This document shows, one piece after another, positions 1,507-53,692 of a DNA stretch of 64,000 nt. Origin of the DNA: Octopus vulgaris (taxonomy: Eukaryota). Position numbers and translations under genes: made by a program. Below the pieces are notes generated by a model that was not told where the DNA came from, made no database searches, and saw nothing but the letters and a program-made list of their open reading frames with translations. Within the stretch, counting starts at the first letter, position 1. Each line of letters opens with the position of its first letter. The stretch spans positions 93,806,001-93,870,000 of the forward strand of contig OX597814.1 in the NCBI GenBank assembly GCA_951406725.2, written 5' to 3'.

Positions 1507-3333
1507 CAGTAGTTTTATTTTTATTTTTATAGCGTGCTTTCACTTCACTACCGAGCGCAGCTCTGTGTGCCTTGGGTATGTGCTGTGATTTGTTGTGATG
1601 CTCTGATGGTTATTGTATGGAAAGTGTTCTGCGTAGGATGTGTGCAGTGCCTAGTAGTGCAATTTTCTGTATGTTATATGTGTTTGTAAGTCCTGGTGTT
1701 TTTGTTATGTATTTGTCTGAATATTTTTTATCATGCCTAATGCACCTACTATGATAGGAATTGTTTCTGTTTTTAGATTCCACATTCTGGTTACCTCCAA
1801 TTCCAGGTCTTTGTATTTTGAAAGTTTCTCCATTTCTTTTAGAGACACGTTGTCATCTGCCGGTATTGATACATCAGTTAGAAAGCATTTTTTTTCTTCA
1901 TGATCTCTGACAACTATATCTGGTCTGTTGGCCTTAATTTCTCTATCTGTGTGTATCGGCATATCCCAGAGTATGGTTGCTTTCTCATTTTCTGTGACCT
2001 TTTCTGGTATGTGCCTATACCATCTTTTTTCTGTTGTTATTTCATAATGTTGGCATAGCTTCTAGTGTATGTAGGTTCCAACTCTGTCATGTCTGTGAAT
2101 ATATTCCTTCTTAGCCAGGACTGGGCAGCCAGAGATAATATGATTTATTGTTTCTTGTCCATCTCCACATATTCTGCAGTTACTTGTTATATTTCTTTTC
2201 ATTACATGTTTTTGGTAATTTCTGGTGGGGAGGCTTTGGTCTTGTGCTGCAATTAAATATCCCTCTGTCTCTGCTTTGAGTCCTGAGCTTCTCAACCATT
2301 GCTGGGATTTTTCTTTGTCTATTTCTTTTGCATTTAGTTTAGTCCAGTATTTACCGTGGAGGGGTTTTTCTTGCCATCGTTTTATCATGGTTCTTTGCTG
2401 TTCTAGTTTTAGTTTGGATTTCATTTGTTTTATAGCTTTTGTTGTTTCTTCATCTTCTTCTTCTTTTTCTTTATATTTGTTAGGTGGTATGATTTCTTGT
2501 TTATATTTGTCAGCTTCCTTGAATACTGAGAACAGTTTTTTGTTTTGCTCGTGTTTTGCCGCTATTTGTATCAGTTTTCCTTCCTTCTGAAGTAGATATT
2601 TTTGCAATCCTATGGTGGTTATTTTATAGCAGTTTTCCAGCTGTATAATGCCTCTACCACCTTCTATACGTTGTATATATAGTCTTTCTATGTCAGATTT
2701 TGGGTGATGCATCCTAGACCCTGTCATTATTTTTCTTGTTTTCCTATCTATTTTGGTCAGTTCATTTAGTGTCCAGTTAAGGATATTGTAGCTGTAACTT
2801 ATAACTGGGACAGCTAAAGTGTTAATACCTATTATCTTGTTTTTAGCATTGAGCTCTGTTTTTAGTATTGATCTAACTCGTCTATAATATTCTTTTTTAT
2901 TTTCTCTTTCATTTGTGTGTGTTGTGTCTTATCTAGTTCATGGATTCCTAAGTATTTGTAAGTTTGGCTTTGGTCTAATTCTTTTATTTCATTGGTTTTA
3001 TCTAGTGTGATGTTGCTACTCTTAACTAGTTTTCCTCTTTTCATGGTTACTTTGGCGCATTTTTCTAATCCAAATTTCATATCTATTTCTTTGGTAAATC
3101 CATGAACTGTCTTTAATAGTGTTTCCAGCTGTTTGTCATTTGCAGTGTATAGCTTTAGGTCATCCATATATAAAAGGTGGCTGATCGTTTTGCCGTAACA
3201 TTTATATCCGCATCCAGTTCTATTTAGCATATCAGATAGAGGTGACAGTGCCAAGCAGAAAAGGAGTGGAGAGAGCGTGTCTCCCTGGAATATTCCTCTT
3301 CTAATGGGGATGGCTTTGGTTTTCATGAGTCCC
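1507..3333 (-). mobile_element. 5'-truncated R4/Dong-like LINE (RT C-half, CCHC finger, RLE, 3'UTR) inserted in (TAA)n
   Basis: GIFQGDTLSPLLF and HLLYMDDLKLY (RT, ORF 2862-3326); CRICG..ETINHIISGC (ORF 2062-2727); RPDIVV..CFLTDVSIP (ORF 1705-1962); (TAA)n on both flanks; frames broken by few lesions. Confidence 0.93.
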
Positions 3334-3383
<50 letters not shown>

Positions 3384-3547
3384 GTTATTATTATTATTAT
3401 TATGAGGAGGAGGAGGAGGTGAAGAAGAGGAAGAAGAAGGAGAAGAAGAAGAAGAAGAAGAAGAAGAAGAAGAAGAAGAAGAAGGAGGAGGAGGAAAAGG
3501 AGAAGAAGAAGAAGAAGGAGGAGGAGGAGAAGAAGAAGAAGAAGAAG

Positions 3548-3578
<31 letters not shown>

Positions 3579-3595
3579 TGAAGAAGAAGAAGATA
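3334..3595. repeat. (TTA)n then (GAG/GAA)n microsatellite
   Basis: Direct reading. Confidence 0.95.
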
Positions 3596-4488
3596 AATGA
3601 GAATGAAAGCATCTATAGCTCTTTTCTGCATTTCGTATTGCTACAATATGGGAACCATTTGTGCTGAGGGAAATAGAAATACAAACAAAATGGGAACAAG
3701 CAGTTGAACTCGTTTAATAACTAAAGTCAACTTTTACCAAAAATGATAACAAAAATGGTAATATTAATTTGATAATGCTAATGATAATTATGGTGTTATT
3801 AGTAATGATAATTTTAGTGATAATAGTCATTATTTCAATGGCAATTTGCAATGATAGAACTCAACTTCTTTTCACATCGATTCGGCAATTCTGGTTTCTT
3901 AATTACAAAACAGAGTTTTATAATGATACTTTTTAGGTTCACGAATATATTTAAATACTTGAGCCTGGGGATTTGAATATTATTAGAGTATTATGAATAT
4001 TATTTTATAATAACATCTATATTCATGCCTTTTAAAAATAAATTTCTTTTAAGTTAGTGGTTTAAAAAAAATATTAACTTTAGAGTACTGCAATTATGAA
4101 ATAATGGTTTTTATTACTAAGTACAATGACCATCTCTGACGCCATAAATTGTTTATGAAAGATATTCCAAGTAGACAGATTTTCTTTGATTATGTTTAGG
4201 TTGGTGTCTATATGTTCGAGGAATTTAAATGAAGAATGCTTGGTAAAGAAAGCAGTCATGGTTTCACAGATCATGTATGACATTAATGCATACGTTTGAT
4301 GTTATATAATATGATTCGGACAAATATTTAATTGAAAGTATTTTCAGACGATACGATGACATATACCGAGAGGATTGCAAGGGATGTAACACAGATTTCT
4401 GTTGATTATTATTATTATTATTATTATTAATTCTTTGTTAGTAAATCTTTGGTTCCATACGATGTCCTTGTTTTCGATGTTTGTGGAT

Positions 4489-5690: not shown

Positions 5691-8056
5691 AAATAAATAA
5701 ATGGAATTTTATCAAGTAGGACACAATATAATTTTTCTCAAATATTTTAAAACAGTAAGAAGGAGGAAGAAGTTCATTTTGGCGCTATTGTACCTAAGAA
5801 TAGACTACACGTCTAAGAATCATATGCAGCATAGTGAGGTCATAGGGTTGTAAGTGATTGCAATTCATTTCTAATTCATTTATCTCTTCAATTACTAAAT
5901 CCAAGACTAGAAGACTGTGTCTATTTTGAATAAAGGACAAGAGTGAGTTGATAGCTCATGGTTCGGTATGGTTATAAATATTATCATATGTATCTCTTTT
6001 CTCCAGGGAGGAAATAAGACATTAGGAGTAGTCAGTTGGATATAAGTAACAGTCTATAAAACGAGGCAGGGTAGGTGTAGACCATAAATCATGATGTTAC
6101 TTACCAATTAAAGGGATAAGACGCTAAGAAACCTAAGATGTTAATAGAGAGAAAATTTGATTTAGGTGCACTATGGGTGATTGTTTATAAGCCATAATGT
6201 TATGTTGCGTAAAAACAGGAATTTCAAAAATGATATAGCCAAAATAGGTAAAAGGGGTGTATGTATTAGTTATAAACATTAAAAAGAAAGATTACATAGA
6301 ATAAGCTATTCATTCATGTACAGAATTAATTACTTATTAGGTGGTTTCTATAAAGACTCCCCTGTGAAATCCCTTATGGAATTACTGGAAAGATATATAA
6401 GCTATCTATCAATTTTAAGCCATGAATCAGAAAAATAACGATGCATACAGATACACATTCATTTACGTATGTGCATATATGCATATATACACTTACACAA
6501 ATATTTAGACGTTTATATAGATAAAGTATAAATATCCTGCATAGACTTAAGTAACTGAAAAATATCTGTTTAAGAACAAAAAAATAACAATTTATAAGGG
6601 ATAAGAGGTTAATAAGTAAAGGTATCAAAATAAGAAAACTAATAAGAATTTTTAGCAACTAACAAGAAATAAATATAACCTACACATAAAGAGACAGGGG
6701 ATTAAAATTAGAGGTAGGGAAGATATTAAGGCAACTCGAAAAGCGGGAGTAATAGATATGTAAGTAGTGAGGACAGTTAAAGGTATTCAGACCAAAGAGA
6801 CATTATAAGTAGAAATGTTTCAGGTGTTAGTGTCTGTATGATTTTATAGTTTCTAGTGGGTTTCTGATTTAGTCAAAAGGAGACTTGCTTACATTAAGTC
6901 ACTACAAATATGCATATGGTCAGTATTGTTGAACATTACACAAAGAAAACTAGTGCAATCACCAAAATAGGATGAAGTCAGACTAACTAGGCAGGGTTTA
7001 TCATGAGATAGTATTATATATAGTACACCACACACCATAACACATAGCTTATAACATGTAATTCAATATAATTCACCATATAACATAATATCCCATGATT
7101 TTATTATACTTAATGCTAGAGGGTAAATTTAGAACGGATACGACACCAAAATTAATTTCCGCCATCAAATTTCAAGTATGGAAACTATAATCGTTAGTTT
7201 TGAAAATGCTTAAATGTACGGGTGACACTATGCATACATAATGCACTTAGGTCTAATCTATTATTAATCTGGTTGTTCTTCTCCCTATACTTAAAAATCT
7301 CATAAGGTTTCATAGAGTTTATAGTGGGAGACACTTGTACAAGATACTTATCCACGCCTGTATGTGTGTGTATGTGTTTGTTTATGTAGGCTTATACATA
7401 CACACATATGCATGTTTGTTTACATTTCTTGGAAAGATCGGTGGAATTAGCATTAACTAGGTAACCAGTGGTTTTCTTTAGAAAAAAATTTCCGCAGTAC
7501 CTCAAACAATCCACTTGAGAATGCTGGTAGTTGTCGGGGGCACATGAAAAATTGTAGAGATGTTGTCTATATGAAACAATTGGTTGCTTTGCAAGTTCAT
7601 AAATAAAGAATATTTAGATACCAAACGCAGTGTTGAACACTCATTGTCCCCGTTTGATACTCTTGTGTATACATGCGTTGTATGCGCGCACATGTGTGCG
7701 TATGTGTGCGTGTGTATATGTGTGTGCGTGTGTCTGTATATATACATACATTAATGCATATATTTTTGTATATACGCAGTTATGTATATATGTGACAGTG
7801 CGTATGTGTAATTCATTTTCAGCTCTATCCTGTTTTATCTTTTGTTTGTTTTGTTTATTTTCTATTACTTTATCATCCCTGTATCTCTGTATCTTTCTCT
7901 CTTCGTCCTTTACTCCCTCTTTCTTTTATATACTGTACTAATTACCGTGTACATTATTGCAATTTTTATTTCTTGTTACAGACACACACATGCACACACG
8001 AAAACTATATATACATTTATATGTTAGTGTATGTATGTGTGTGCATACATATTCAT

Positions 8057-8103
<47 letters not shown>

Positions 8104-8244
8104 CATATATTATATACATTTATATATATATATATATGTACATATATATATAATACACACACACATATATATATGAACACAATACATACATATGTGTATC
8201 TGCATGTGTGAGTGTTTACGTAAGTGTGTGTGTTTGTGTGTGAA

Positions 8245-8282
<38 letters not shown>

Positions 8283-8576
8283 TAAAGTACAAATAATTTT
8301 ACAATTATATATGTCCTTGCTGACGCAAATTTATAATAATTCTTTTCGTGCAATTCATGCGATACATTCTGTTTCAAAACATAAAACTGCGTATTTTATA
8401 GTTGTTGGTGTTATTGTTTTCATCCACTTCAGCTCCAATCGATCAGAAGTCCTATATTCTTCGACTGTATGATCATATCTTAAAATACGTATCTATACTT
8501 ACATTACAACATTATACAAATTATGCTTGTTTTCAGACCAACAAATTGTTTTTAGTATTAAAACTACAAGCGACAT

Positions 8577-8698
8577 CGACTTTGCCTTTCATCTTTTTCA
8601 GCTCTATAAAATGAGTACCATTAAGCGCCGGGTTGAATGTAACAACTTTGTCCCTCCCTAGAAATCGCTGCTCTTTGCCAAAACTAGAAGCCATTATT
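8577..8698 (+). mobile_element. Degenerate 3' part of Meta-core SINE
   Basis: cgactttgcctttcatc...aaaatgagtacc matches the core of the SINE at 11791-12188. Confidence 0.6.
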
Positions 8699-8982
8699 AA
8701 GAATAAGGCCAGGCTTTACCTACCAGACTAGATTGGAGAAGTTCCGAACCTGACATTTTCAATGACCACATTCGGGTTTTAGGAAATACGTATACAGGGA
8801 TAAACTATTCTGTCCCGCTGGCCTCAAGATAGAAAGAGGAAAATGAACGAGAATTATCTGCTCCTTCTTACAAACAGGACATGTTATTTGATGGACATTT
8901 TTCTAATTAACTGAAAGCCAAGCGGCCGTATATATGCATAGGTTTATGCATCAAAAGCTATATATATATATATATATATAGT

Positions 8983-9228
8983 GGAGGCGCGTGGATTAGT
9001 GGTTAGGGTATTGAACTCATGATCGTAAGGTTGTGGTTTCGATTCCTGGACCGGGCGATGCGTTGTGTTCTTGGGCAAAACACTTCATTTCACGTAGCTC
9101 CAATCCACTCAGTTGGCACAAATGAGTAATCCTGCGACGGACCGGTGTCCCGTCCAGGTGGGGAATTTCTACGCCACTGAAACCGGGAAACCGGCCCTTA
9201 TGAACCTGGTATGGCTTGAGAAGGAACA
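8983..9228 (+). mobile_element. tRNA-derived SINE with Nin/Deu-like central domain
   Basis: A-box (gtggattagtgg) and B-box (gtttcgattcc) head; body cctgcgacggac..tcccgtccagg..gaaaccggg resembles Nin/Deu domain (family assignment from memory). Confidence 0.7.
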
Positions 9229-9405
9229 TTCGTCTGCCGTTACGTTCTGAGTTCAAGTTCCGCCGAGGTCGACTTTGCCTTTCATCCTTTCGGGGTCGAT
9301 AAATTAAGTACCAGTTACGCACTGGGGTCGATGTAATCGACTTAATACGTTTGTCTGTCCTTGTTTGTCCTCTGTGTGTTTAGTCCTTTGTGGGTAGTAA
9401 AGAAT
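9228..9405 (+). mobile_element. 5'-truncated Meta-core SINE (octopus OK-like) abutting the previous SINE
   Basis: gtcgactttgcctttcatcctttcggggtcgataaattaagtacc core shared with several other copies in the window. Confidence 0.85.
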
Positions 9406-9487
9406 ATATATATATATATATATTGCTATACTCAGGGATGGTCATATATATATAAATATAGTGGAATTAAACCCTGAACCATGTAAT

Positions 9488-9520
<33 letters not shown>

Positions 9521-10986
9521 CATATATATTCACGAGAGGAAAGCCGGTAAGTCATGATGTACCAATATTATGCCCTTACTCCACAAAATTCAAGGGTTTT
9601 TATACCTGTAAACTGCGTCAAAACTGCTTAACGTTCTCAGAGCTAATCCAATAAGTATTTTTAAAAGACATAAAACTTGCATTATAATACAAAAATCGGG
9701 TCCCCCAAACTAGGTTTAGAACGATTAAACTATTATAATGTGTTGAAGAAAATCTGAATTAAAGTAAAGCAATTTGATACGTATATGTTAAAATCTTGCT
9801 CATTTTCTTTCAGTGTTCTGTATTTGTAGTAAGGTTTTAGCTGTTTGACATTTATTTTTATTTTGTTTGCTTTTACATGTGCTAAAATATAATTATGAAT
9901 AATGCCCTCAATATATATAGTCTTTTCTGTTATATTCACCTGCTATATTCATCAGAAAGACATTCAAATACTGTTTCGGCCACCGAGAACTAATGCCCAA
10001 TGAGTTGTTTACTTAAAATTTGAATTTATAGTAATATGAGAGACGAGTATTTCGAATACAACAAAAGGCCTGCTGTTATATTCTTCCACAAATCTGATTC
10101 ACTCTACCTAATGTCCTCTACCAACTGGGTGTGAACACTTTGACAGCAAAAACGCACTTAAATTCGTCGCATATGCAGCGATCAAACAACACAAAAATAA
10201 TAACAATAATACTAATAACAATACAATTCCGAAACATTTCTACCCAATCACCACGACTCTCACGTAAAAAATAAAGCAAAAAAACTGATAGCCGATTTGA
10301 GCTTGCCGACAGACAAAAAGACTTTCGAGGGGACAATTGACTCAGTCGGCGTAGTCTTCACGCTGTCAACGGCGACCTCCCGTCTCTGATGCATGAAACC
10401 GACAACAGCTTACCCCCGCCACCCACCGTCGGTACGTTACAAACACTCATTTTCTCGTACTCGAATTCTCCGTTGGGTTCTGTTATATTATTACACATAT
10501 CTTCTCCAAGATGAGAAGTTTACTGATTTATTTCATTATTGTATTTTTCAAATAATACATTTATTGTCATCATTTAAAATCTCATTTGTTTCTTCTTGTT
10601 GTCCTTGCAGCCAAACGCTTACCTATTTCTGCCTTTATCATCATCATCATTATCACCCACATTATACAAGTCATTAGCCATCTGGTATTATTGCAATTGT
10701 AATATGAAATACGAGGCTACCGAATACAACAAAAGGTCTGCCATTAAAAACATAGAATTATTCAGATGTAAAATTTTAAATTTTATTCCTAGGAAATCGT
10801 TGGCGTCGACGTGAAGTAACACACTCCATTTTCAGCTATTCATATTTCCCTTTGTCTTTTCTGGAATAAAAGCATTCGTTCGACATGAGCGAGTTTTTGT
10901 TACAAACTTATGCCAGGCAGTTGTCATTTAGTTTGATTTATTTTTATTCAGATGTTTAACCATCAAAAGTGAAAATAGTAGCTTCC

Positions 10987-14864: not shown

Positions 14865-15248
14865 TACTCTTTTACTCTTTTTTTTAACTCTTTTACTTGT
14901 TTCAGTCATTTAACTGCGGCCATGCTGGGGCACCGCCTTTAGTCGAGCAAATCGACCCCGGGACTTATTCTTTGTAAGCCCAGTACTTATTCTATCGGTC
15001 TCTTTTGCCGGACCGCTAAGTGACGGGGACATAAACACACCAGCATCGGTTGTCAAGCAATGCTAGGGGGACAAACACACACACACATATATATATATAC
15101 ATATATACGACGGGCTTCTTTCAGTTTCCGTCTACCAGATCCACTCACAAGGCATTGGTCGGCCCGGGGCTATAGTAGAAGACACTTGCCCAAGATGCCA
15201 CGCAGTGGGACCGAACCCGGAAACATGTGGTTGGTTAGCAAGCTACTT
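14865..15248 (-). mobile_element. OR-like SINE, body and 3' part (split by insertion 15249-17563)
   Basis: Homology to other copies; head resumes at 17564-17600. Confidence 0.92.
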
Positions 15249-17563
15249 TATTTCATAACATTTGCCATAAAGGCAGTACATAGAGTAAGTTAGCTTCGCG
15301 GGCTGGACGAGGACATTAATGAAATGAATGATAATGAAAGAAAGATGATGGGGATGGGAGAAGGCAAAAAGCGCCCGCCGACTTCTGCCTCTCTAAAACA
15401 TTGTTCTTTTAAAAACAAACACAAAACGAGGTATTAACCTCTTACAATTTTACAACTTTTCAATTTTTGGACTTAACAGTCCATTACTAACAACAACATA
15501 GTTCAATAGTTACATATGATATAAATACAATACACAAAGCCCCTCCTCCCAGACTTGGCTTACACTTCCCTTAGGAATGCGCCAGCTCTAGGTCGGGGCC
15601 CCTCAAGTCGTATCACAATTTATGACTCGTCCTCAAAATAACTTGTACCTGCACCCTCCGCCATCCACCACGCCTCCCTCAAAATGTAATCGAGTTCCGT
15701 GTTAGCGTCGCCCGGGACCAAGCTATAATCCTCATTGAGCTCCTTCAGCCCAAGCGTCACGTCGAACGCCACGACCTCCATAGCTACCTGCGGAGGCCAT
15801 TCGGGGTCCTGTGTGAAGGCTAAAGGTGCTCCCTTGTGGTGCTTTTCCATCACCTTTTCAATCTCTCCGCCTCTGTGGAAGAGGATCAATACATCGTTTT
15901 TGCTCGGGTGCGGGATATTCAATTCTTTCGTTGGCGGCACAGTTCCCGCCAACGGTGTTTCTTTTTCTGTCGGTGGCACAACCCCAACCGACGTAGTTCC
16001 GGGACATTCCGGTACTATGTCACCGACTGCCGGTAATGTCCCGTTTCTCTTCCTCTTTTTCTTTTTTTTCAACTGAGGGAGGGTGCGTCTCCTCCGTGGC
16101 CGGAAGATTCGCCTTTCCCTCCTCATCCCTAGTATCCTTTGGTGAGCACCCATTGTTGCTCACCTTCCTCTTTCGGCCTCTGTTTGAGGAGTCCTCCACT
16201 TCCTCGGCCGTTTTCATTCCCTCTTCTACAGGGGTTTCACTTAACTGTTCCGGGATCCTATTTTGTTCCCGGGGACAGTTCTTCTTTATATGGCCGGACT
16301 CCAAGCACCGATGACACTTGTGGGGCGACCCTCAAGCATCACCGGGTACCTGCACCCGGCCATTTTCAAAAAATCTGGAAGAACCAGATTGGCTGATTGG
16401 GTCCAAAGGGTCAAAATTGCTTTTGACCCAACCCAAGCAGCCGCAGGAAGAACTTTCACATTAAGGAGCTTAGTTTCGCTGCTACCCAGATCCCAGCGGA
16501 TAGTCTCCTCTATCCACTAGGGTTTTATCCCGGGTGGCAGCCCGTAGATCCACGCTTTCGTCAGTCTCTTTTTTTGGTACGTGGGCAGGAATAAAATTTC
16601 CTTACCCTCCAGGGATTTACTAGCAAATTTGCAAGCCTCTTCAGGGGTGTCAAATAGCAACCACACCGTTGCATATTTGACACCCCTGGAAATGAATTTA
16701 ATTGTTGGCAAATACTCTGCCAACTCCTTTTCAATTGCCGTCTTTTCGAATAGGGCGATGGTGTCGAGGGCCTTGGAGTAGGTTCTCAACACCACCGTCC
16801 TATCTTCACGGTCTTTTAACCACTTTTTAGGCGGTATAATCTCCCATTCCAAAATTTTGTCATTTTTCATTGCCATGTTTTTTTGGGTTTTTTAAAAATA
16901 TATTCAAAATAAACTTAAAAAGCGAGAAGAAAAAGTTCAAAGGTCCAAATAAAATTCGATAGATTTTTTGAAAAAACAAAAAGGAGGAAGCACAACAGAA
17001 GGGAAGAAATCAACGGAAAGTCGCAATAAACAAAAAAACAAAAAGGGGAGTTTAATGAAGTTCAAAAGAAAGTCAGTAAACAGCAAAACACAGCAAATCT
17101 TCTGGCCTTACGGTACTCCCGGCCTGAGTTGAACCTAGAACGCCGCAACTGGAACACAAAATTTGGTCCAAAAGGTACTCCAAAAGTGGCTCATTCTTAT
17201 AATTTTCTTGCGAGATACTCCGACAAAGGAATAAATTCAACAAACCCAACCACAGCACTGGCCACCGCCAACGGTAATTTTAACAGTAACTTTATTGTGT
17301 TCTGAGGATACGCCTCTCCACTGTTTTTTTTTCAATAAACACAAAAACAGCAGCCGCCGAGAGCAGGCGAAATTGTCTCAGAGTTGGACACAACTTACTG
17401 AAAAAATAATTAGCACGCAATAAATTATGCCCAACTCACAATAAACAAAATCACTCACCTCGACAACTTTCTGTTTTTGGTCTTTTTTCTGTAATTGGAC
17501 GGAGCTAGCTAACTCACGTCCACTCTGGCTCAACAGGAAGCAACTGACTAACAGCGCATGTGC
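15249..17563 (-). mobile_element. Complete 2.3 kb ORF1-only (half-LINE/HAL1-like) non-autonomous retroposon
   Basis: 15-bp TSD gttagcaagctactt at 15234-15248 and 17564-17578; one disrupted ORF 16876->15620 with CHRCLESGHIKKNC knuckle; ends in AATAAA; no RT/EN motifs seen. Confidence 0.85.
15620..16876 (-). pseudogene. gag/ORF1-like protein (~420 aa) with CCHC zinc knuckle; one stop and two frameshifts
   Basis: ORF pieces 16517-16876, read-through to ...MLEGRP, shift to KCHRCLESGHIKKNCP (16020-16304), shift to 15620-16153 tail. Confidence 0.8.
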
Positions 17564-17600
17564 GTTAGCAAGCTACTTACCACACAGCCACTCCTGCGCC
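17564..17600 (-). mobile_element. Displaced 5' head of the OR-like SINE at 14865-15248
   Basis: Reverse complement ggcgcaggagtggctgtgtggtaagtagcttgctaac equals the SINE start at 33178. Confidence 0.92.
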
Positions 17601-18039
17601 TGTGTACATTAATTTTCATTAATTTTTGCTATAATAATCTATGACTGCATTTAATTAGTGATAATGGATGGCGCATTATATAGTTATTGAAATCACTTGA
17701 TATAAGTGTATGTATAATTGTGTATGTGTGTTAGTGTGCGTATGCTTGTGTGTGTGTATGTGTGTTTGTGTGTGTACATAATAGCATACCAAGGCATAGA
17801 CGAAATTTAAAGTAATGGTAAGTCAGATAAACAACCAACTTGTTAGATATATGAAGACATTGCAGCAAATGTGAATGTGTACACACGATCTATATGTTTA
17901 TGTATGCACGCCTGCGTGTCTGTGGGCATGCGGATGAGTATGGTTAGAATACAAGATACATAAGATGTTCCGGTAGCCCCTCATACTCAGACTCTGTATC
18001 TGTCTACGTATCTCTGCAGTGAGAGCTCATACCTTGTAT

Positions 18040-22455: not shown

Positions 22456-22599
22456 CTGATGATGATGATGATGATTTCTCTTACTGGACACAAGGGCCAA
22501 ATCATTCAATAAAAGGAACTACTTGATATGAAGGTGGAGGGGAAAATTCAATTAAAATAGTAAAAGGAAAGGAGATTAATAAAGTGTAGTCAGACTTAC

Positions 22600-23249
22600 A
22601 GCAAATAATTGTCCAAGTGTAACAGATAATCCGGAAAGAAGATTAATAATGTATAGGCAGACTTACGGCAAATAATTGTCCAAGAGTAGATAGAAAGTGA
22701 TCGTGAGCCCATATCTGAACGTTTGGGGTCAAGGTTAGCAAAAAAAACGTAAATACCATAATAAACGTTATCATAAATTCTATACCAAAAGCTTGACCTT
22801 TGTGTTTCGGCATGAACCGTTGTAACCCCTAGTTGGCCGTGCGCCTCATGTGGGGTTAATCCGTATAAAATACCAGCGCCTGTAATGGCACCGGCGTATT
22901 GTGCTGTGATATAAAAAATTGCCCTTAGCACATTGACGTTTCGCGTGACTAGCATTGCTATAGTAACGGCCGGATTCAGGTGAGCACCGCTGATATGTCC
23001 CACACACTGGACCAACGTGGCGGTGGCCAGTCCGAAAGTGAGTGCTATTTTCAATTCGTATTCGATGAGCCGTCTCTCATCCATGATCTGTCGTTTCTCT
23101 TCTTGTCTCCATAACGTCCAAGAACCACATCCGATGAAAGTATAAAGCAAAGTAGTAAGGAATTCACAGCGGACAGCCTTCCAAAAACTGTGACTCATTA
23201 AGTCCTCCTTAAGAGACATCAGCTTGCTTCGGAACGGAGTTTCGGTCAT
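22600..23249 (-). pseudogene. Aquaporin (MIP family, AQP4/big brain-like) exon covering TM1-TM5, disrupted by indels
   Basis: FWKAVRCEFL, GHISGAHLNPAVT (first NPA), AQYAGAITGAGILY; GQAFGIEFMITF in a shifted frame; ends GLSVTLGQLFA|GTAAGT donor; second NPA exon not found in window. Confidence 0.85.
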
Positions 23250-23379
23250 AGCTGAAGCTGTACTGAAATCAACAATTGATGCTGATGATGCGGTTAACGT
23301 TGCCTCTGCCGTTATTGTAGCTGTTTTCTATTTCTTTTCTGTTTTTCCTTTTTTTCGTTTCTGATTATTATACTTCTAG

Positions 23380-25156: not shown

Positions 25157-27238
25157 TTTAATTGAACGGGAGTGGGGTGAGAGGACTTGCTTAAAACGCC
25201 ATTTCAGATCAGGAAGACGAAGCAAGCTCCGAGTTGGGGGATTTTTCCCATATTTTTAACCACACCTTTCGAAATGATATGGGCAGGGAACATCTTTTTA
25301 TGAAAATAAAATAAAATATATTATCTCGTACAACCCTCCCCCTCATCATCCCACTCCTGACCGATTTTGGCCAATTTATTTTGCACTTGGAAACCATCGG
25401 TGGAGCCTTTTCCATAAGAATAATATTAAAAAGAATTTGGGAAGCGTGTGTGTTTGTGTGTTGTTGTTGTTTTCGGGGGATTTTGAAAGCTTTTTGGTGG
25501 GTACAGCTTGTTTATTTGTTGGTGTACTGTTGTGCCTACTTCTTAGTATTTTATGTGTGACTTCTGTCCACTCAATTCTGTTGGCCTCTCCGCACGACAT
25601 GACTAAGTGGTCAGAGTCGGGAAGGGGTAGTTCTAGCAGATCGAAATTTGCTGATGTTTTTGTTCCTCTGGCAAGAGCTGCGTTGATGGTGTTTTTGTGG
25701 GCGCTGCGCTGTGGTGGTGGTTGTGGTCAGCGCCTCTGTTGCTGTTGGCGTTGTTGTCTCTCTTGTAGTTGTGGTTGGTGGTGATTTGTTTGCTGTAGCC
25801 CTCTCTGCTTTCTATTCGTGGAGTTTCTTCTCTTGTTGGGGTTGCTTTTGTTGTTGGGGCTGCTTCAGTAGATGGGGTTGCTTCAGTTGCTGTGGTGTGG
25901 GTGGTGCTTGTATCAAGGGGATATTTCTCTCCTTGTGTTTTAGTTGTGGGCAGAAGGCTTTCAGGTGCTTAGTCTGCCCGAAATGTCAACATCTTTGCCT
26001 TCTGCCCCCAACTGTGACGTTCATTATAGTACCATCTGGAAGGCTGAGTTGGTCAGGAATTTGTTCCAAACGTCTTGGTTTATTTGGATCATTATTTACA
26101 ATCCTGTCCCAGCATGGCCGCGGCCTTCGGGATAAAACATTTTTAAGGCTTTTAAGGATTTAAGTCCAGTTGGTTTTTCTTTGTTTCTCGACTTGGGTGA
26201 TTCTGATTTTATCTAGCAAGTCGAGGGGGATGGCTGCGGCAATCCACAAACAGTCATTTCTGGTAGTATCTCCAGTATTTTTATCTTGGTGACGCGCCCT
26301 CCCAAGTTTGTTGAAACTAGGACAAATTCACTGTTTCTCATCCGAGCTGAGTGCTGCTTTGCTACGTATTCTATAGCAAATCTGACTTGAATTGTGCTTT
26401 ATTTCTTACACATCGACAGATATGTTACGTCTTTCCAAATGGGTTGCAAGCATTTTCAACTGCTTGCTTTGTGACAGTTTCTAAGCGTCTATTTTTTACA
26501 GGTATAGTTTTATACATTATAGTACGTTTGTTTGCATTGTCTATAATATCTGGAGGCGTGTTCATCAAAACACATCTTTCGCATTTTCTTTTTAACATGT
26601 TTCTGTAGACTTTGAGAGAATCTACAGAAACACTAATGAATTCATTACTAGGCTTTGCCATTGACGCAAATACTCGGCTGTTTAATGTATTGGGTTGTTA
26701 TTGTTGTTGTTGAGTGTTCAATGTGTTAGTGTCAGTGGTGATAGTGGGAGGGCTTGGATTCACAGGAGTAGCAACACTGGCAGCATTCATTAGCTGAATT
26801 TCCTTGCTCTTTTCCTCTTCTTTCTCGCGTTTCTTTTCTTTTTTATCCTTCTGTTGCTCAGCGTTGCACGTGCTAGCAAGACTTTGGTCGTCCCTCCCTC
26901 TGCCTTTTAAGGCGCGGAGAGGGGACGGAAGCAATTAATTTAAAAACTTTTTTGGCTGTTTTCGGAAAGCAGAGGAGGGAATTCAAAAAGAAAAGAACAG
27001 CTAACACTCTTCAAGGATATTTTGCAAATTTTGAAAAATGAAAACATGAAGAATTTAAATTGAAAATTCGTCCCAAAAGGGGTAAAGTCCCGCCTAACCC
27101 TTCGGCTAAATAATAGCCCAATCGGCCTGGCTACAAAAATGTAAAAAAGTTCAGAAACAACAATGTTATCTGTACAAATTGAACAAAAATTTACAGCTCA
27201 CGAACACATGTCCTTCTTCTTTTCCCTACGAAAATGAC
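25157..27238 (-). mobile_element. Second, older ORF1-only retroposon homologous to 15249-17563
   Basis: Broken frames NKRTIMYKT..QAVENA, RVTKIKI..LPE..WIAAAI, IPDQLSLPDGTIMNVTVGGRRQRC*HFGQTKHLKAFCP align in order with the first element; ends ATTAAA; no RT/EN; no TSD found. Confidence 0.72.
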
Positions 27239-27269
27239 GATCATCAAAATAAATGGCTGGACGTTATTC

Positions 27270-29663
27270 CTCATGTCATGCAATTAAAATCAAAAACGCA
27301 AAAATGGACACGTGAAGAATATATTTCAAAAAAGGTACATCAGAAATAGACATAGAACGCTTAAAAGGAAAAATACATCAGGAAAGAACACAGCAATGTC
27401 AAATAATATCATAAGCAGTGGGACTGTAAAATACGAAGACAGAAGAAACATGTCCAGAAACGAAGTAAACAACGAAAGACAAGAAACCCAGACCGTAGGA
27501 ATGTATAATAATGACCAACAAGCACCAAACCAGAACGCCACAGACAAAACATATGAACGGGAGGGAATACGAAGCAAATCTAAAACCTGGAGACAGTGAA
27601 GGTGAAACTAATGATTATGTACACTAAAAATTAGCTTTATCAAAGAATTGAAAGCTACAGATCTCAGTATGGACCACCGAGTGTACCTCCCAAAAATTAA
27701 AATTGATAATAAAACAACGTCAGTAATAAATAGCATGAACCTAACCGTCACAGAACTATTCGCCATAGAAACAAATGTCAATATGGCCAGGCTAAATGAT
27801 ATAATATATGCAGCAGCCCCGCTGGCCACAATCCCTAATACCCATCCAAACACGAGCATCCCCATCCCCCAAAAAACTGTGGATAAATAATATCCAGAAC
27901 ATAGTAGCATATATGAGAAAGGTTCTGTCAATTCTTAATGAAACTACTAGACAATCAACACTACTAAGCAACAAGAAGAGAAGAAAAATACTACATAAAT
28001 ACAAAATTACAGAACAAGGTATACTGAGGTAAGAGAACAGCTAAAGCAAGATATCCTCACCAAAGCATAAAGAATCCGCCGGTATGAGAAACGCTAACGT
28101 TTCTTTGAACAAAATAAACAGTTCAACTCCAACCTGAAAAGATTCTACCAAGCATTTGGCAAAAATATAATAGACATCAATGCAGCAAGAGTGGAAGAAT
28201 TTTGAGAATGAATATGGTTGGCGAAGAAACAACCTGTGCAAAGATCTATAAAAACAACGAACATAACACCTGGACAACTCTGGAGTCCTGTAACAACTGA
28301 AGAGGTTATTCAAGTACTGCAAAAACTAAGCAACTGGAAGGCAGCAGGGCACATCAATTTTCCCAACGTCTGCTTAAAATATCAAACAGGAACACATAAA
28401 AAGCTGGTTGAGAAATTTAATGAAATACTAGTAGAGCCAGAGACAATCACTGAAGGGAAAACTATCCTAATTCCCAAATCTACTGAAACGGCAAACCTAC
28501 AAAATTGCCTCTGCATTTTACAAAGCCTTTACTGCAAGAATAACACAGATAATGAGCAAACATCTGGAAGGAAACAACCTGTTTCCAGAAGAGCAAAAGG
28601 GAATCTGCAAGGGCTCATACGACTGTAAATATCAGCTACTGATCAATTAAGCCATAACTGAAGACAGCCGCAGAAGAAAGAAAGGATTAAGTATGGCCTG
28701 GATCGATTACAGAAAGGCTTTTGATAGTATTCCCCACGTATGGATCCTAGAAACACCAGCCATGAATAATAGCACCAATAATCAAAATATAGATGGATGA
28801 TCTAAAAGAGTACGGTACTAATAGTAAACAGTACATGGATTTACCAAATAAATAAACATGAAATTTGGCTTAGAAACATGTGCCAAAGCGACCTTGAAAG
28901 GGGAAAAAGGAATTGAGAGTGTCAACATCCCACTAAATAAAGCAAATGAAACAAGAGAATTAGACCAAATCCAGACGCAAATACTTAGGAATCAATGAAC
29001 TAGATACGATACAACACACACACAAATGAAAGAAGATTAGAAAAGATACTATAGAAGAGTAAGATTAATACTGAAAACAGAGAGCTGAATGCGACTAACA
29101 AGATAATAGGTAACAACACTTTAGCCGCCCCAATTATGAGTTACAGCTACAATATTCTTAACTGGACTCTAAATGAGCTAATCAAAATTGACAGGAAAAG
29201 AAGAAAAATAATGACAGGATTTAGGATGTACCACCCAAAATCTGACATTGAAAGGTAAGTACACAACGTATCCAAGGTGGTTGGAGCCTTATACAGCTAG
29301 AAAACTATTACAAAATAACCACTATAGGACTACAGAAATACATACTTTAGAAGCAAGGAAAACTAAATAGCCACAAACCACCAGCAAAATGGAAACCTCT
29401 TTTCAGCCTTTAAGGAAGCTGACAAATACAAAAAAGAAGTCATAGTACCTAACAACTATGAAGAAAAAGAAGAAACAACGAAATCCAAACTAAAATAAAA
29501 CTGGAACAGCAACAGATCATGATAAAACGATGGCAAGTAAAGCCCCTTCATGGCAAACTTTCGGTTAAAATAAAAAGAAATAGACAAAGCAAAATCGCAA
29601 CAATGTTTGAGAGGCTCAGGACTCAAAGCATAGACTGAAGGGCTTTTAATTGCAGCACAAGAT
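27270..29663 (+). mobile_element. Decayed, internally deleted R4/Dong-like LINE
   Basis: NWKAAG, EGKTILIPK, EEQKG, LSMAWIDYRKAFDSIPH, MKFGLE.CAK, TEGLLIAAQD; nucleotide similarity to 2230-3090. Confidence 0.88.
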
Positions 29664-41472: not shown

Positions 41473-41739
41473 GAAATATTAAAATTACGCAGGTTGTGTG
41501 TCAAATAGCTAGCTAGAGGCGGTGGCCTCTTGGAGCTAATCAGCAACAGCTTTAGTCTTATATTTATAAGACTGCCATATTAGTATGGCAATAACTATTA
41601 ATATATATATATATATATATATACTAGACGAACACAATACATACAACCAACAACCTATAACACTTGTAGAGAACAACCAGAATATGAACAACCACCAACA
41701 CGTTACACTGGACATCCTAAATGGACACACACATGGAAC

Positions 41740-44055
41740 AATAAACAAGTGGATAGAAATCAACACATAACCTTCAACAAACATCGAAAAAATCCAATCC
41801 ATACAAGCACCAACCCCATGCGACTCCACAAATTTACGAGATGGATAAAAAACAACCCCCACTATCAATACAATACAAACACAAAACATGAACCATCCAC
41901 CTACCCACAAAGAAACCTGAAGCCCAGTAATAGAAATTGGCTCAACACACACGGAAGGTGGGAAGAAAACAACTACCAAAGACAAAACAACATATACAGA
42001 CCATATAGACCACCCCTACTACTACAAGAAAACCTAAGATATGAAAATGGAATTGGGAGACGCAACAGCACAACCCCTTTTTTAGGGAAAGGATACTTCA
42101 ACCATATTCCAGACCCAATACACCAAAAATTCCAAATGAACACACAAAACACATAGACCCCAAACTAATAAACCTATCTAAAAGAGAACGTAACGAAAAT
42201 GAAATGAATCTACTACTAAAAGGCCCCAATTTTACACCCACACCCAGTCCAAATCTTTATAGAACTAAAAACTGATATAGACAACTTCAGCCGCCACCTC
42301 CACCTTATGGAATTCTTTGAAAATAAAGAAACAGAAGATAACTCAATCATAAGGAAAAAATCCCATTTCACCCCTTACAAGGGGAGTGACAAACACCTAG
42401 ACGCATACATCGAGACAATATCCAAATTCCCTCTCAACACGCACAAATGCAAACAGAACCTCCGCAGAAGAGAAAAACAAGCCTTACAAAAACTAAAAAA
42501 TGACAAGTCGATCATTATAAAAGAAGCTGACAAAGGTGGAGCAATAGTAATTATGGATACATATTACTACAAAGAAAAGATACTGGAGTTACTTAACAAC
42601 CAGACATACTATAAAGAGGAACCAACACCACGGGAGAAAGCAACAATAAAAAAAATTAGAACATTAGTCAATGAATACCAGACCTCCTTTACAGACAAAG
42701 GGAAAGACTATCTATGCAACACAAGAACCAAAGATAGCAACTTTTATGGATTACCTAAAATTCATAAAAGCTCTAAAATACAGAGAGCCATAAAGGAACA
42801 GAGGAACCACTATATAAAAATACAAAGGCCCGCAGACCTCACAATGAGACCAATAGTGGCAGGACCCCAGGCACCGACACAACAACTAAGCCACTTCATA
42901 GATGTACTCCTCAAACCTTTATGCCCACAAATACCAAGCTACATAAAGGATGACATAGACTTCCTCACATCAAGACATCAAGAAAAAATGGAAACGTTAC
43001 CTCGATGACTGCTTCATCTTTTGGAACAGATCAGAAGAAGACCTACGACCATTCCACAACATCCTCAATACACTGCACCCATCTATCAACTTTACAATAA
43101 ATACCAGCCACAACGAACGTCCCTTTATAGACATCAACATCAAGATACACAACTCCATCATCACAACAGATATCCACTACAAAAAAACCGACACACCAAT
43201 ATTTAAATTTCTACTCCTGCCACCCATCCCACATAAAAAGAAACATCCTATATATTAAGGCAAGACGCATATGCAGCATAGTAACTGACTCACAAACACA
43301 CCTAATAAGACTAGATGAACTTAAAAACTTCCCACTAGAACAAAAATACCCCCTTAAACTAACAAAAAATGGAATCTCAAGAGCAATGAAACTGGACATC
43401 ACACAACTCAGGACCCCCAAAACAAAAAAAACAAAACAAAGAAAACATTATCCCTTTCATAAACACACAAGCCTGGAGTTACCAACATGTTTCAAATCAT
43501 ACATTCAAATCTACCAATAGTCCTATAAAGCCCCAAAATGGAAAACATACTAAACAAATATTGCATAAAAAACAGTAGACGACAAGACAAAACCTGAAGA
43601 AACAACTAACAAGAGCGAAATTCTCATCAGAAACTCAAACTGAATTCTTTGTAAAAGAATGCAGGGATGGTAGATGTGGGATCTGCAGTAACGCCACCTA
43701 CAAATACATAGAGGGAGACAAAGAAATGAAATTCAAAAGTGGTCACATATTCAAAGTAAATGCGGATATGAACTGCAAGACGCAGAACGTAATATACTGC
43801 ATAACCTGTCCCACATGCAAGGAGGATTATATAGGTGAAACTGGAAATTCTTTATGCCAATGAGCCAGAATTCACCGACAGCATGTCCGACAGGAGGAAC
43901 TGCGCAAGATACCACTGAATAAACACCTAGATACATGTGGAGAAGGAAAATTTAAGATCTTTCCCTTCAACAAATGTCCAAAGAACGACACCTCCTTCAG
44001 GAAGAATATGGAAAAATACTTCATAACTAAGTTCTCCCCCAAATTGAATAGGTGA
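41740..44055 (+). mobile_element. Penelope-like retroelement (RT with internal deletion + GIY-YIG), decayed
   Basis: ORF 42307-43008 IIKEADKGGAIVIMD, FYGLPKIHK, RPIVAG; then KWKRYLDDCFIFW; NVIYCITCPTC..YIGETG; ends SPKLNR*. Confidence 0.92.
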
Positions 44056-46899: not shown

Positions 46900-49780
46900 C
46901 AGCCTTATGCGCGCCACCATTCGTTCTAATCTTTCCAAAATACACACCATCGACCGTCTTCTCCCTCATGCTTTTTCCATCTTCTCTAGGTCGCCTTCCC
47001 ATGAAAACACTACTTTACGTTACATAATTCATTTAAATCATCTCTTTCATCAATTTCTCGCTCACACCAAACAGCGTAAACCCCAATCACTCCTCCATAG
47101 TCACACACGATGTCACTACCCTTTTCATTCCCTACCACTCTCCCTTCCTGATACGCTCCCCCCATCCTCACCAAAGCCCCTTCCAACCCTCCTCACACAT
47201 ATCCGCTCCCCTCCCTCCCCGCCTTCTACTATCCCACCACCCTTCTCCACTTCCGTCTGTTATCATTCCTTCAGATGTTCTCCCCTTTGAGACGGAGCGC
47301 TCCATCCTTAGTAGGGATCTGCACTTTATGCCCATCACTACATCCAGCAACGAATTTCGGTCTCGTGCCGATACCCACACCTTTGTGCGCCGTGTTATAT
47401 TTTGTGCACTTTCCGCGACACTCCACTCGCTTCTAATGGGGAGGACTCCTTCACCGACCTGGGCCACGGAGCATCCCAGTGGACGCCAGCTCCTGGCCAG
47501 TTCCAAGCAGTCGATCTTTTTGCGGGCGCCTGCCAACGCGCTGTGGACCGGTTTAACTTTCCTAGCTATCCACGTCATTTGAACATCTCCCCAGCCGAAC
47601 TCTCAGCCCTTCAATGTATCCGACGCCATTGGCGACATCCAGAGCCTTTATACGGTGATTCCTCACAACGAGGGTCTGCGTTCACTCCAACATTTCCTTG
47701 ACCTTCGACCCAACCCCCATCCTAACACATTCACACTCGTTCGTCTGGCCGAACTTGTCCTCGCACTTAACTCCACGTTCGCAAGTGATTTTTACCAGTA
47801 AGTCTCGCAAGTGGCTATGGGAACGAGAATGGGCCCCAACTATGCGAACCTGTTCGGCTACGTTGAGGCAAAAACATTCTAAGTTTCACTGGTCTCAATC
47901 CCGAACTATACGGCCGTTATATTGACGACTGTATCGGTGCGACCTCGCTCTCCTGCGAGCATCTAGGCTCCATCCTCTCTTTTGTCAAATCTTTCCATCC
48001 TACCCTCCACTTCCCCTGCACTATTTCTGACACTTCCGTCTCCTTTCTTGACATTTCGGTCAGCATTCATCACTCCACTCTCACCACTTCCATCTACTAT
48101 AAACACACAGACTCACACTCATACCTCAACTTCTCCTCCCACTCTACACACACCAATCTTTCCATCGCCTATTCCCAATTCCTCCCACGCAAGCTCTGCA
48201 GTGATGAGCATGACTTTGAGACTCAGTCTCATCTCATAACTCACCACTTGCTTCCTACGTGGATATCCCCTCACCACTATCCACACCGCCCTCGCCAGAG
48301 CACATTCCGTGGACCGTGGATTTGCTCTCTACCCCGCACCCGACCCGCCGTCTTCTGTTTCCCGTCTCCTGTTTCCCTTCACGTACCACCACACTACCCT
48401 ACCTCTGCAACGCACCATTCTCAGAGCATTCCAGCGACTCCAGTCCGACTTCTCCATTTCGCACATCTTCCCTAACCGACCCACCCCTCCTTCAAACGAG
48501 CCCACAACCTACGAAACCTCTTGGTCCACATCTTCTTTCCTAACCTAACCTTCTAACCCGGCCCGTATCCCTGCTCCCGCCCACGCTGTCGCACTTGCGC
48601 TTACTTCTCCAACACCACCCTCCTCACCGGCACCCATCATCGACCATATCATATCACCGACTCCTTCGCCTGCACTTCTAGCAATATCATCTTTGCATCT
48701 CCTGCTCTCTCTGCCTTTCTTCTCTATACATTGGTCAAACGGGACACCATTTGGCTGACCGGTTCGCGGAATACATCCGAGACATCCGACTCGGCAATGA
48801 CACCCCGGTCTCGCGCCACTTCCGCTCTACCGGCACACTTTGCAACACCATTCTGTGGTCGGATTGTCTTTGCATAGGGGCCATTCGGACTCCCGTCTTC
48901 GCCGTGAACAAGGATTAATCTTCTCTCTTCGCTCCCTTGTGCCACATGCGCTCAACTCTTCTCCCCTCTTCTTCTAATCCTCCTCCCCTCTCCTCTCTTC
49001 CTCTCACACCTACTTCCTCCCATCCGCCTCTCCTTTCTTGTTCCGACTCCTTCTTCTCTTCACGCCTACCCTCCTTGTCTCTTCTCTTCACTCCTACCCA
49101 CTCCTCCCTTCCCCCTCTCCCCTCATAGTCACCCCTCCCTCGTAAACCCACCTCTACAAAATCCAAACCCACCTTCACTATCCATCCCATCCCACCCCCA
49201 CCCAATCCCTTACACCCACTCCCACCCAATCCCTTACACCCACTCCCACATACCCTCCTTTAACCCCACCCTCAGCCTAACACACACCCACCCTTACTTT
49301 CCCAACTCTCGTCTTCCCCACATCCCAACACTACCACACCACACCACACACCACCAAACCACACACCACCACATCACTGCACACCACCACGCACACACTA
49401 GCACTGACCACTTCCCAGCACCCACACCATCATCCACACACCTACACATGCCCACATGCACACCTCAAGGTCACCAGCCCTCTTCCACACGTACATACAT
49501 GATCTCTTATACACGCACACATTCGTTTTGTGATTACCACTACTTTATTATCTCCCTTTCTTACTAGCTCTCCTGTGTGACCCCTCTGTCCGGCTTTCGC
49601 CATGATAGATCGGTAGCCACTACACATTCTTCTCTCCCTGTTACTTTCTGTGTTCCTTTCTGTGGAAAAGCGTAGGCTCGAAACGTTAAAGTATTTTTCA
49701 CTTCCGGAGCGTTAAACTAATACATATGTTTGTTGTCTACATCACCTGTCTACAACTTTTATTTGCATTTTTTGGTGAAT

Positions 49781-52168: not shown

Positions 52169-53149
52169 TTAAGGTTTGCATGATGGAGAGGTTCTTCTGT
52201 ATAGAATATCTATCTCATTTGTTTCTCGATTTCTTTTAGTATAATAAGGGGCACAAACTGTGGAACCCCAAGTCATTTTGAATTTTGGGGGATTAGCTTT
52301 GATGATTGCAACATTACAGTATTTATTGGGATGCCTCCATCCTGCATAATTACCGTCCGATGTCGTTTGATGAACAGCAGTCAGAGATTCTGTAGCATCA
52401 ATAAGTGTCATATTTTGAGAATTTGCAAAAGCGATCAACCAATTATCATATCTACTACGTCCAATGACGAAATCAAAGATTTGATTCCAGGGAAAGTGTC
52501 GATTTGTAATAAAATAATCTATTGCTATGCCTCTCATTAATTTTCCGCTTTCAGCTATCTTTCGAATATTATAAGAATTCACAATGTATGTACTATTTGT
52601 AAATTTAACGTTTGTCCTTTGACCAACTATTAGTATAGGTCTATTTTGTGGTAACTTTTTCTTAATAGATTTCAGCGTATTGATAAGACTCTCATCGAAA
52701 AGAATGTCAGCATTTGCATAGCCATAGAAGTCGTGATCAGTAAAAGACGCAAGTACTTCAAGAATCATCGCTTTTAAAACTGGTATTTGACCGCAGGCAA
52801 CTTTTGTAACATTCCGTATCCTCCAATTTTTTCTTAAATACGTATCCAGCCGGCTGCTACTTACATTATCCGTGGGTATTGCTGGTCTAAATAATACAGG
52901 TTGCAATAATAACGGCCAACTCCCCCATATTCGGGCTGTATTTTCATAAATTGCAAGTTTTTCTGGTGATAAGTTCCACGTTGTGATAAGGACTAATAAA
53001 AACTTGGTTTCTCGCAACTGATTAACGAGGCTTCTCTGTCTGTGTAATAGGCGCTCTTTTAAGTGTTTGTCTATCAAAAGTATCCCCGCAAGCAAGAAGA
53101 TTGTGATAATACCCATAATAAGATATTTTTTTCGAAGCGACATGCCCAT
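52169..53149 (-). CDS. Type II membrane protein, putative glycosyltransferase (GT-A-like), 326 aa, single coding exon
   Basis: Uninterrupted ORF; basic tail + TM helix (YLIMGIITIFLLAGILLI); YANADILF DxD-like motif, IDYF, IGRSRYDNWL, IDAT..LTAVHQ; splice acceptor ttttatttcag directly before ATG; AATAAA at 52021-52026 (-). Confidence 0.8.
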   Translation of the reverse strand: MGMSLRKKYLIMGIITIFLLAGILLIDKHLKERLLHRQRSLVNQLRETKFLLVLITTWNLSPEKLAIYENTARIWGSWPLLLQPVLFRPAIPTDNVSSSRLDTYLRKNWRIRNVTKVACGQIPVLKAMILEVLASFTDHDFYGYANADILFDESLINTLKSIKKKLPQNRPILIVGQRTNVKFTNSTYIVNSYNIRKIAESGKLMRGIAIDYFITNRHFPWNQIFDFVIGRSRYDNWLIAFANSQNMTLIDATESLTAVHQTTSDGNYAGWRHPNKYCNVAIIKANPPKFKMTWGSTVCAPYYTKRNRETNEIDILYRRTSPSCKP

Positions 53150-53692
53150 CTGAAATAAAAATAAAGCAACTTGATATTATAGTGATTGATTAATTGGATC
53201 TTTTCTGTTTGGCTTAAATTTTTTAAATTTTAAAATTATGTGAAAATTTTTAGATTTGATGTATTAATGTAATTTTTCTTATAGAAATAAAATTATTATT
53301 TTATATATTTTTTAAATAAATATTGTTTAACACTATTTGCTTATTTATTTAACTATTATCGTTAACCTAAAGATTGATTATAATTTTAAATCGAATTTGT
53401 TTCAATTGATGTAAACTTAATTGTAATTCGAATTTAATTGTAGCCATGAAACGTACATAGTTTTTTTTACTTATTATATATTGATCATTCATTTTTATAC
53501 TTTTTGAGAGCTAGTTATAGTTTTATAAAAATGTATATTTGTTATTTATGTTTTGATCTTTGTCTATCACTGTTTGAGTTTGCATAATAGTGGTTTTATC
53601 TCTAATTTGTATTTTATATATTTATATTGTAAAATTTAATTTAATACTAAATTGAATTTTTCCCTGTAAGTTTGATGTTATACTCCCTATAT

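Follow-up and report, generated by a model that had tools for sequence, protein, structure and literature searches.

A decayed ORF1-only retroposon copy in a SINE of Octopus vulgaris, probably from an undescribed family with signs of SINE-head preference

When a retroposon copy carries an ORF1-like gene and no reverse transcriptase (RT), is it the remnant of a longer LINE, the retrocopy of a host gene, or one of many copies of a family that encodes ORF1 only and would move with a borrowed enzyme? This question is raised by an insertion within a 64-kb stretch of the Octopus vulgaris genome (“the window”, i.e., all of the DNA analyzed here, with positions counted from its first letter).

A retroposon copy that splits a SINE

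A previous sequence-only reading had described a ~2.3-kb insertion with an exact 15-bp target-site duplication splitting a SINE head, and UTRs of ~690 nt (5′) and ~370 nt (3′). All of these features were recovered, with an insert of 2,315 nt, a duplication identical at 15 of 15 positions, and UTRs of 687 and 371 nt (Table 1). Across the 64-kb window, exact complex 15-mer pairs spaced 2.0–2.6 kb apart occur at one further locus only. The flanks of the insert are the two halves of one SINE, with the insert in the same sense as the SINE (minus), and the duplicated 15-mer is present once, uninterrupted, in five other SINE copies (at ~11.0, 33.2, 38.4, 40.2, and 63.6 kb of the window). ARAGORN finds no tRNA gene, so that the tRNA origin of the SINE is putative, being judged from motifs that resemble the boxes, and we take the labels “A-box” and “B-box” on its head as assumptions.

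Table 1. Features of the insertion and of the interrupted SINE (window positions)
Feature	Positions	Strand	Basis or remark
ORF1-only retroposon copy, 2,315 nt	15249–17563	-	Bounded by duplication; one copy in window; depth in 30/30 bins (runs X2, X3, X9)
Target-site duplication, 5′ side	17564–17578	.	15/15 identical
Target-site duplication, 3′ side	15234–15248	.	15/15 identical
5′ piece of interrupted SINE head, A-box side	17564–17601	-	Aligns with uninterrupted copies
5′UTR, 687 nt, T-rich, putative internal Pol II promoter	16877–17563	-	Alignment of the P0002 and P0003 start regions with Met at 16876
ORF1 N-terminal part, two predicted RRM-fold domains	16332–16876	-	Model of relative P0003 and fold searches
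CX2CX4HX4C zinc knuckle, past first frameshift	16275–16316	-	Knuckle sequence CHRCLESGHIKKNC
Charged/basic linker and C-terminal part of ORF1; A-rich run with second frameshift near 16055–16100	15620–16274	-	Open frames
3′UTR, 371 nt, without poly(A), candidate breakpoints ~15437 and ~15600	15249–15619	-	
AATAAA spanning 3′ junction, last two As within duplication	15247–15252	-	
Remainder of interrupted SINE: B-box side, body, tail	14887–15248	-	80–95% identical to five other window copies

The element ORF extends on the minus strand from the first ATG at 16876 to 15620, i.e., ~418 codons, in agreement with the length of the single ~420-aa ORF proposed earlier. In the window copy this ORF is not intact, being broken by a stop at 16517–16519 and by frameshifts near 16320–16330 and near 16055–16100. 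The CX2CX4HX4C motif noted earlier is present. The longest stop-free frame in the element is 179 aa, and Pfam searches of its ORF pieces gave no RT or endonuclease match, in line with the claimed absence of both enzymes. The two ends of the element share no LTR or TIR, and no poly(A) or simple-repeat tail is found at its 3′ end. The AATAAA proposed as the 3′ terminus is present, but its last two As belong to the target duplication. Folding of the 3′ 192 nt was no better than that of shuffles (z −0.33, with only a 4-bp terminal hairpin), and Rfam gave chance matches only, below the gathering score. No second copy of the element was found in the window. Overall, the insert is a full-length, decayed retroposon copy with one LINE-type ORF1 and without reverse transcriptase.

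Separately, the 5′ end of the element (17529–17563, minus) has GC-rich palindromic, CTTCCTG, and TCAGTT motifs, which we presume to resemble NRF1, ETS, and initiator sites.

The ORF1 protein and its relatives

A protein search against 1.84 billion representatives yielded 29 hits. Identity was 72% for the top hit, P0003, and 22–39% for the majority of the rest; one hit, P0029 (3,725 aa, bacterial-type domains), was excluded as spurious before alignment. Nine of the 20 relatives looked up are named, all from Octopus (O. sinensis, O. bimaculoides, and O. vulgaris), and the other 11 are Logan proteins without names. As is typical of transposon families, the relatives split into several deep lineages, each mixing Octopus species. 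P0003 corresponds to O. sinensis LOC115225585, with three RefSeq isoform accessions; it tracks one open frame of the element, after which a basic run resembles the other frame, and it stops early, without the first knuckle cysteine.

The structural model of P0003 (25-row alignment, pLDDT 78) displays two alpha/beta domains, followed by the knuckle region and a disordered tail, and tandem-RRM proteins rank top in a Foldseek search with this model. Specifically, VIA-align superposed residues 14–100 onto the La RRM (Z 8.3, rmsd 2.7, 80 aligned) and residues 103–183 onto U2AF65 RRM1 (Z 8.2, rmsd 2.6, 74 aligned), with Z values of up to 8.5 for the two domains, both on RRMs; such values are middling and indicate fold, not function. 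The zf-CCHC match is weak (Pfam E 0.0028, under the curated cut-off). For the C-terminal ~140 aa, the long-protein search found no relative and the atlas no match, and a single-sequence model was unusable (pLDDT 36); the long-protein searches as a whole returned one chimeric model only, and none for the C-terminal frame. We thus predict ORF1p to consist of RRM-RRM-CCHC and a charged tail, and the earlier claim of a LINE-type ORF1 gains support from this predicted tandem RRM plus CCHC arrangement and from the Octopus relatives.

With regard to the suggested comparison with Tx1/L1 ORF1 and ZCCHC3, the predicted folds are tandem RRMs, and the atlas neighbors of P0003 are CCHC and ZCCHC3-RBD clusters (0.90–0.92). 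Like ZCCHC3-type proteins, P0003 (atlas feature score 0.90) has two RNA-binding domains followed by a knuckle, a resemblance that is a lead only; unlike them, none of 25 family members matches the Pfam models RBD_ZCCHC3_1st or RBD_ZCCHC3_2nd (E 0.1), and ZCCHC3 is a host gene. RRM plus CCHC defines a type I LINE ORF1, and excerpts of PMC5203782 describe its presence in non-mammalian animals as consistent with Tx1; type I ORF1s are common to other clades too, and alone are not diagnostic of Tx1. The octopus element displays this feature of Tx1-clade LINEs, as predicted from the P0003 model. It has no ORF2 whose RT could set its clade, and the putative L1/Tx1 origin is drawn from its predicted ORF1 architecture.

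The knuckle could also belong to a gag-like gene of another class, either a solitary part of an LTR or DIRS element or the cargo of a DNA transposon, which would have moved other than by target-primed reverse transcription (TPRT). The lack of a poly(A) or simple-repeat tail would suit such an origin, retroviral knuckles are among the PDB sequence matches (E 0.014 or worse), and P0002 matches the ORF1 in its first 46 residues only, joined to an integrase-like gene model. We nevertheless consider this origin very unlikely: those 46 residues are all that P0002 shares, and it looks chimeric; the predicted folds are RRMs, not capsid folds; LTRs and TIRs are absent; and TPRT is indicated by a 5′-truncated stub (see below) together with target duplications of 15 bp and 11 bp.

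P0002 (XP_029639579.1, K02A2.6-like) and P0021 (CAI9742213.1, EPM2A-interacting 1-like) both contain the ORF1 family; these gene models probably represent transposons that were misnamed or fused into chimeras. Similarly, the Octopus gene models P0003, P0004, P0012, and P0025, annotated as “uncharacterized” or “CCHC-type”, are suggested to be transposon ORF1s.

Copy number, variation, and the missing ORF2

Parts of the element were detected in 20 public runs from 10 studies under four organism labels. Four of these runs (X1, guessed to be RNA, X2, X3, and X9) were mapped onto positions 15190–17660, where, by the tool's own warning, run depth is no copy number; X2, X3, and X9 showed depth in 30 of 30 bins. 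In X3, single 5′UTR contigs reached depths of 3,171 and 3,509 vs 37–64 for long divergent pieces, and in X9 a 5′UTR contig reached 356 vs 4.4–10.9 in seven of the eight pieces listed. Overall, the element family comprises roughly tens of copies. The runs differ from the window copy at 173–207 of 2,471 places, so that this copy lies at most ~7–8% from its family. At position 16519, 91%, 99%, and 98% of the depth (X2, X3, and X9, respectively) carries a different letter, and the stop at 16517–16519 is private to the window copy. A one-letter insertion at the first frameshift accounts for 5,138 of 21,658 in X3 and 680 of 1,160 in X9, with none among the rows listed for X2, while a minority 7-letter insertion at 16065 alone would not join the two C-terminal frames. 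An intact family-wide ~418-aa ORF is thus putative.

All parts of the element being multi-copy, UTRs included, and the stop being private, we are therefore dealing with a transposon family, and not with the processed retrocopy of a spliced host gene that the sequence-only reading had offered as a way to overturn its proposal. LOC115225585 could be invoked as such a gene on account of its three isoform accessions, as could the AATAAA at the 3′ junction; yet P0003 is only 72% identical, terminates early, and no longer has the first cysteine of the knuckle, the relatives fall into many deep lineages mixed across Octopus species, and the insert lacks poly(A). This makes a host retrocopy the least probable of the origins considered here.

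Whether the family as a whole lacks ORF2 was evaluated from the 3′ part of the element. Over 15488–15555, depth was 296–668 in X9 and 7,651–9,546 in X3, i.e., ~1–3 fold of the typical 5′UTR depth (356–481 in X9 and 3,171–4,310 in X3, lower in a few places). Such a profile is unlike the steep 3′ excess that a 6-kb LINE should show if its copies were 5′-truncated in the ordinary way. Among the variant rows listed (40 of 272), variant-bearing pieces of other copies (11 rows) bridge 15249–15740 except at 15439–15446 and 15600–15603. The first of these gaps is probably closed by indel rows at 15435 and 15450; the second lies ~20 nt past the ORF stop, where ORF2 would begin, and is unbridged among the rows listed. 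No contig piece spans the whole element, and no second full-length copy was found in the four runs.

These data bear on a competing reading, in which the window copy is a one-off internal deletion of an autonomous Tx1/L1-type LINE, with ORF2 lost at ~15600 (or 15437) during or after insertion from a family that otherwise has two ORFs. The unbridged positions 15600–15603 would suit it. Both this and the ORF1-only reading predict a junction near 15600. In X1, depth from other contigs is ~95 in bin 15522–15604 and nil in 15605–15687, a drop that would favor a one-off deletion and that could be explained by a partner LINE, by an expressed gene containing a truncated copy, or by 3′ bias of the library. 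Two records, X1 record 1 and X9 record 25, cease matching at 15437 and continue as unlike sequence. The former shows one difference over 15227–15437 followed by 581 unlike letters, which could stem from a further insertion in one allele, from contig chimerism, or from a relative with nothing but the last 189 nt in common. In X1 record 2, the element 3′ end comes after 2,485 unmatched letters, a further point in favor of a deletion. One frame of 15590–15510 includes a Trp..Gly-Leu-Cys-Val run, which we take to resemble the end of a Tx1 ORF2 and which would count for a deletion. Finally, potential two-ORF parents exist: O. vulgaris has 80 L1-Tx1 families (a supplement row), of which, according to PMC13282606, 13 were active recently and account for 421 insertions totaling 2.29 Mb (~5.4 kb each).

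We still regard a one-off deletion as rather unlikely. The depth near the 3′ end resembles that of the 5′UTR, and the removal of ORF2 with retention of all of ORF1 and both UTRs should be rare among single copies. Furthermore, the window contains a second, distantly related ORF1 of the same RRM-RRM-CCHC family (~25376–26790, minus; profile E 4e-10), closest to O. sinensis P0012 (tblastn 2.5e-28), which is much more decayed than the first, is frameshifted, and is likewise not followed by ORF2, the next repeat starting ~200 nt on, at ~25167. This second element is old, with an undefined 3′ end and no clear target duplication, and its UTRs are not significantly like those of the first (38 and 163 of 500 shuffles were as good). 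In addition, no ORF1-ORF2 fusion model was found with the family profile among 5,137 long candidates, in what is a weak test.

DNA searches beyond these runs were negative: in metagenome and viral contigs, the 27-nt 3′ pattern had no exact match, and no ORF loci were found in metagenome, viral, or prokaryote contigs, all collections not built for octopus DNA. Within the 64-kb window, no autonomous LINE shares the ends of the element. The window does contain decayed RT-bearing elements (1705–3713, ~27200–29660, 41600–43520, 47867–48475, and 59479–59820; zf-RVT and RVT_1 matches below cut-off), which by eye are R4/RTE-like, Penelope-like, and Ty3-like, and none of which has sequence in common with the ORF1-only element in a comparison across the window.

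Same-site copies, a proposed mechanism, and known systems

A feature that the sequence-only reading had not foreseen is the recurrence of the element at the same site. A joint from 15275 to 17568 was observed in X1, X3 (depth 318), and X9 (depth 43), with five untemplated letters in X3. It corresponds to a 27-nt 3′ stub in a few copies, and since its own duplication measures 11 bp, this stub represents a separate insertion event. The stub-bearing SINEs, at several times single-copy depth, possibly form a small SINE subfamily that carries the stub onward. X9 record 25, ~86% identical (28 other letters and 10 gaps over 15225–15437), has the same 3′ junction in the SINE. At the other end, contigs that differ from the window at 17553 continue past the 5′ junction and enter the SINE, to 17583 or beyond in X2 and to 17592 or beyond in X9; they may represent the window locus in other individuals. 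X1 record 2, by comparison, presents the 3′ end without a SINE flank, matching only 4 letters into the duplication.

Because the insertion site occurs six times per 64-kb window, random insertion would strike it only about once in 10,000. Excerpts of PMC4494074 define target preference as one target in over 20% of flanks. Set against this measure, three lines of evidence support same-site insertion and one copy lacks the SINE flank, among the loose ends listed (1,925 further rows), which are weighted to long SINE-flanked pieces. The same-site copies may point to a Tx1-like target preference, with a partner endonuclease that may favor the SINE-head site, not exclusively.

Taken together, these observations probably reflect a real, undescribed octopus ORF1-only retroposon family with signs of SINE-head preference. 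We judge it fairly probable that the whole family is ORF1-only and non-autonomous, and that a Tx1/L1-type LINE supplies, in trans, the ORF2 enzyme for its movement. Under this model, Pol II would transcribe the element from its 5′UTR, and ORF1p would coat its own RNA via its two RRMs and knuckle. A Tx1/L1-type ORF2p acting in trans would then nick the target at 5′-CTT/AC-3′ (plus strand of the empty site), priming could use the A-rich end of the RNA, where two As provide microhomology, and a second-strand nick would follow 15 nt away. The L1-Tx1 families of O. vulgaris would be candidate partners. A more extensive reading is possible but tentative: ORF1-only elements of the Tx1 type may form an old and diverse lineage in cephalopods, within which the present family would home, via a borrowed, site-preferring endonuclease, to one position between the A- and B-boxes of the abundant SINE head, acting as a LINE parasite for which the SINE would be a safe harbor, with the 27-nt stub spread by a small SINE subfamily.

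ORF1-bearing bipartite non-autonomous LINEs are described in excerpts of Kojima 2018 (PMC5786205) as HAL1 (L1), HeT-A (Jockey), and Ag-Sponge (CR1), with HAL1 likewise covered in those of PMC5753468, and ORF2 loss is said to be frequent among Drosophila telomeric elements in those of PMC13534243. Like these three, the octopus element consists of a 5′UTR, ORF1, and 3′UTR without ORF2, is flanked by a target duplication, is multi-copy, and would need a partner RT. It has the ORF1-type protein without RT or endonuclease by which ORF1-only LINEs are recognized, as well as the marks of non-LTR insertion, i.e., the 15-bp duplication, no terminal repeats, and the 27-nt 5′-truncated stub. Unlike them, it has a type I (RRM-RRM-CCHC) ORF1 as predicted, a cephalopod host, an interstitial SINE-head site, and no poly(A).

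Two of these known elements were considered as possible identities and rejected. The octopus element is not HAL1 proper, given that Transposase_22 (the mammalian L1 type II ORF1) found no match in 25 family members and that tandem RRMs plus CCHC are predicted instead; nor is it HeT-A proper, being a single interstitial copy inside a SINE and not part of telomeric head-to-tail arrays of the Jockey clade.

Among target-preferring Tx1-clade LINEs, excerpts of PMC4494074 list Tx1 in Tx1D, Keno in U2 genes, and Tx1-Mar and SINEU in Mariner-N4, and present target preference as common in Tx1 elements and also in their non-autonomous passengers; Dewa inserts in the tRNA-Leu spacer according to excerpts of PMC3706591. 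The octopus element resembles these LINEs in its predicted ORF1 architecture, in its ~15-bp duplication, and in repeated insertion at one position of a multicopy sequence. It differs from them in lacking ORF2 and in its target, a tRNA-type SINE head, which is absent from the descriptions of those targets in the same excerpts.

Our literature searches listed no mollusc or cephalopod, and no Tx1-clade, ORF1-only LINE, and none is added by excerpts of PMC8967140, PMC4758252, PMC10294476, PMC3706591, and PMC10351740; Repbase, Dfam, and the Zenodo library of PMC13282606 may contain one, and the present family may already be included, without a name, among the repeats catalogued for O. vulgaris. RT-based surveys, e.g., the ORF-based step presented in excerpts of PMC10294476, miss ORF1-only families by design. 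If the ORF1-only reading is true, a Tx1-type mollusc case would be a fourth origin of ORF1-only LINEs after L1, Jockey, and CR1 (as listed in the excerpts of PMC5786205), and would offer a new system for asking why such elements retain ORF1 while SINEs manage without it. A preference for the SINE head, if true, would represent a new target class for site-preferring LINEs. Known mechanisms are unchanged by the finding.

Elsewhere in the window, an aquaporin N-terminal exon is located at 22596–23327 on the minus strand (Pfam MIP, E 3e-38), and ~55 nt surrounding the probable splice donor of this exon are duplicated in tandem (22566–22688); a second NPA motif was not found in the 64-kb window. 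An intact-looking single-exon ORF of 335 aa lies at 52169–53176 (minus); its product has a membrane anchor at the N-terminus, matches nothing in Pfam, and appears glycosyltransferase-like by eye.
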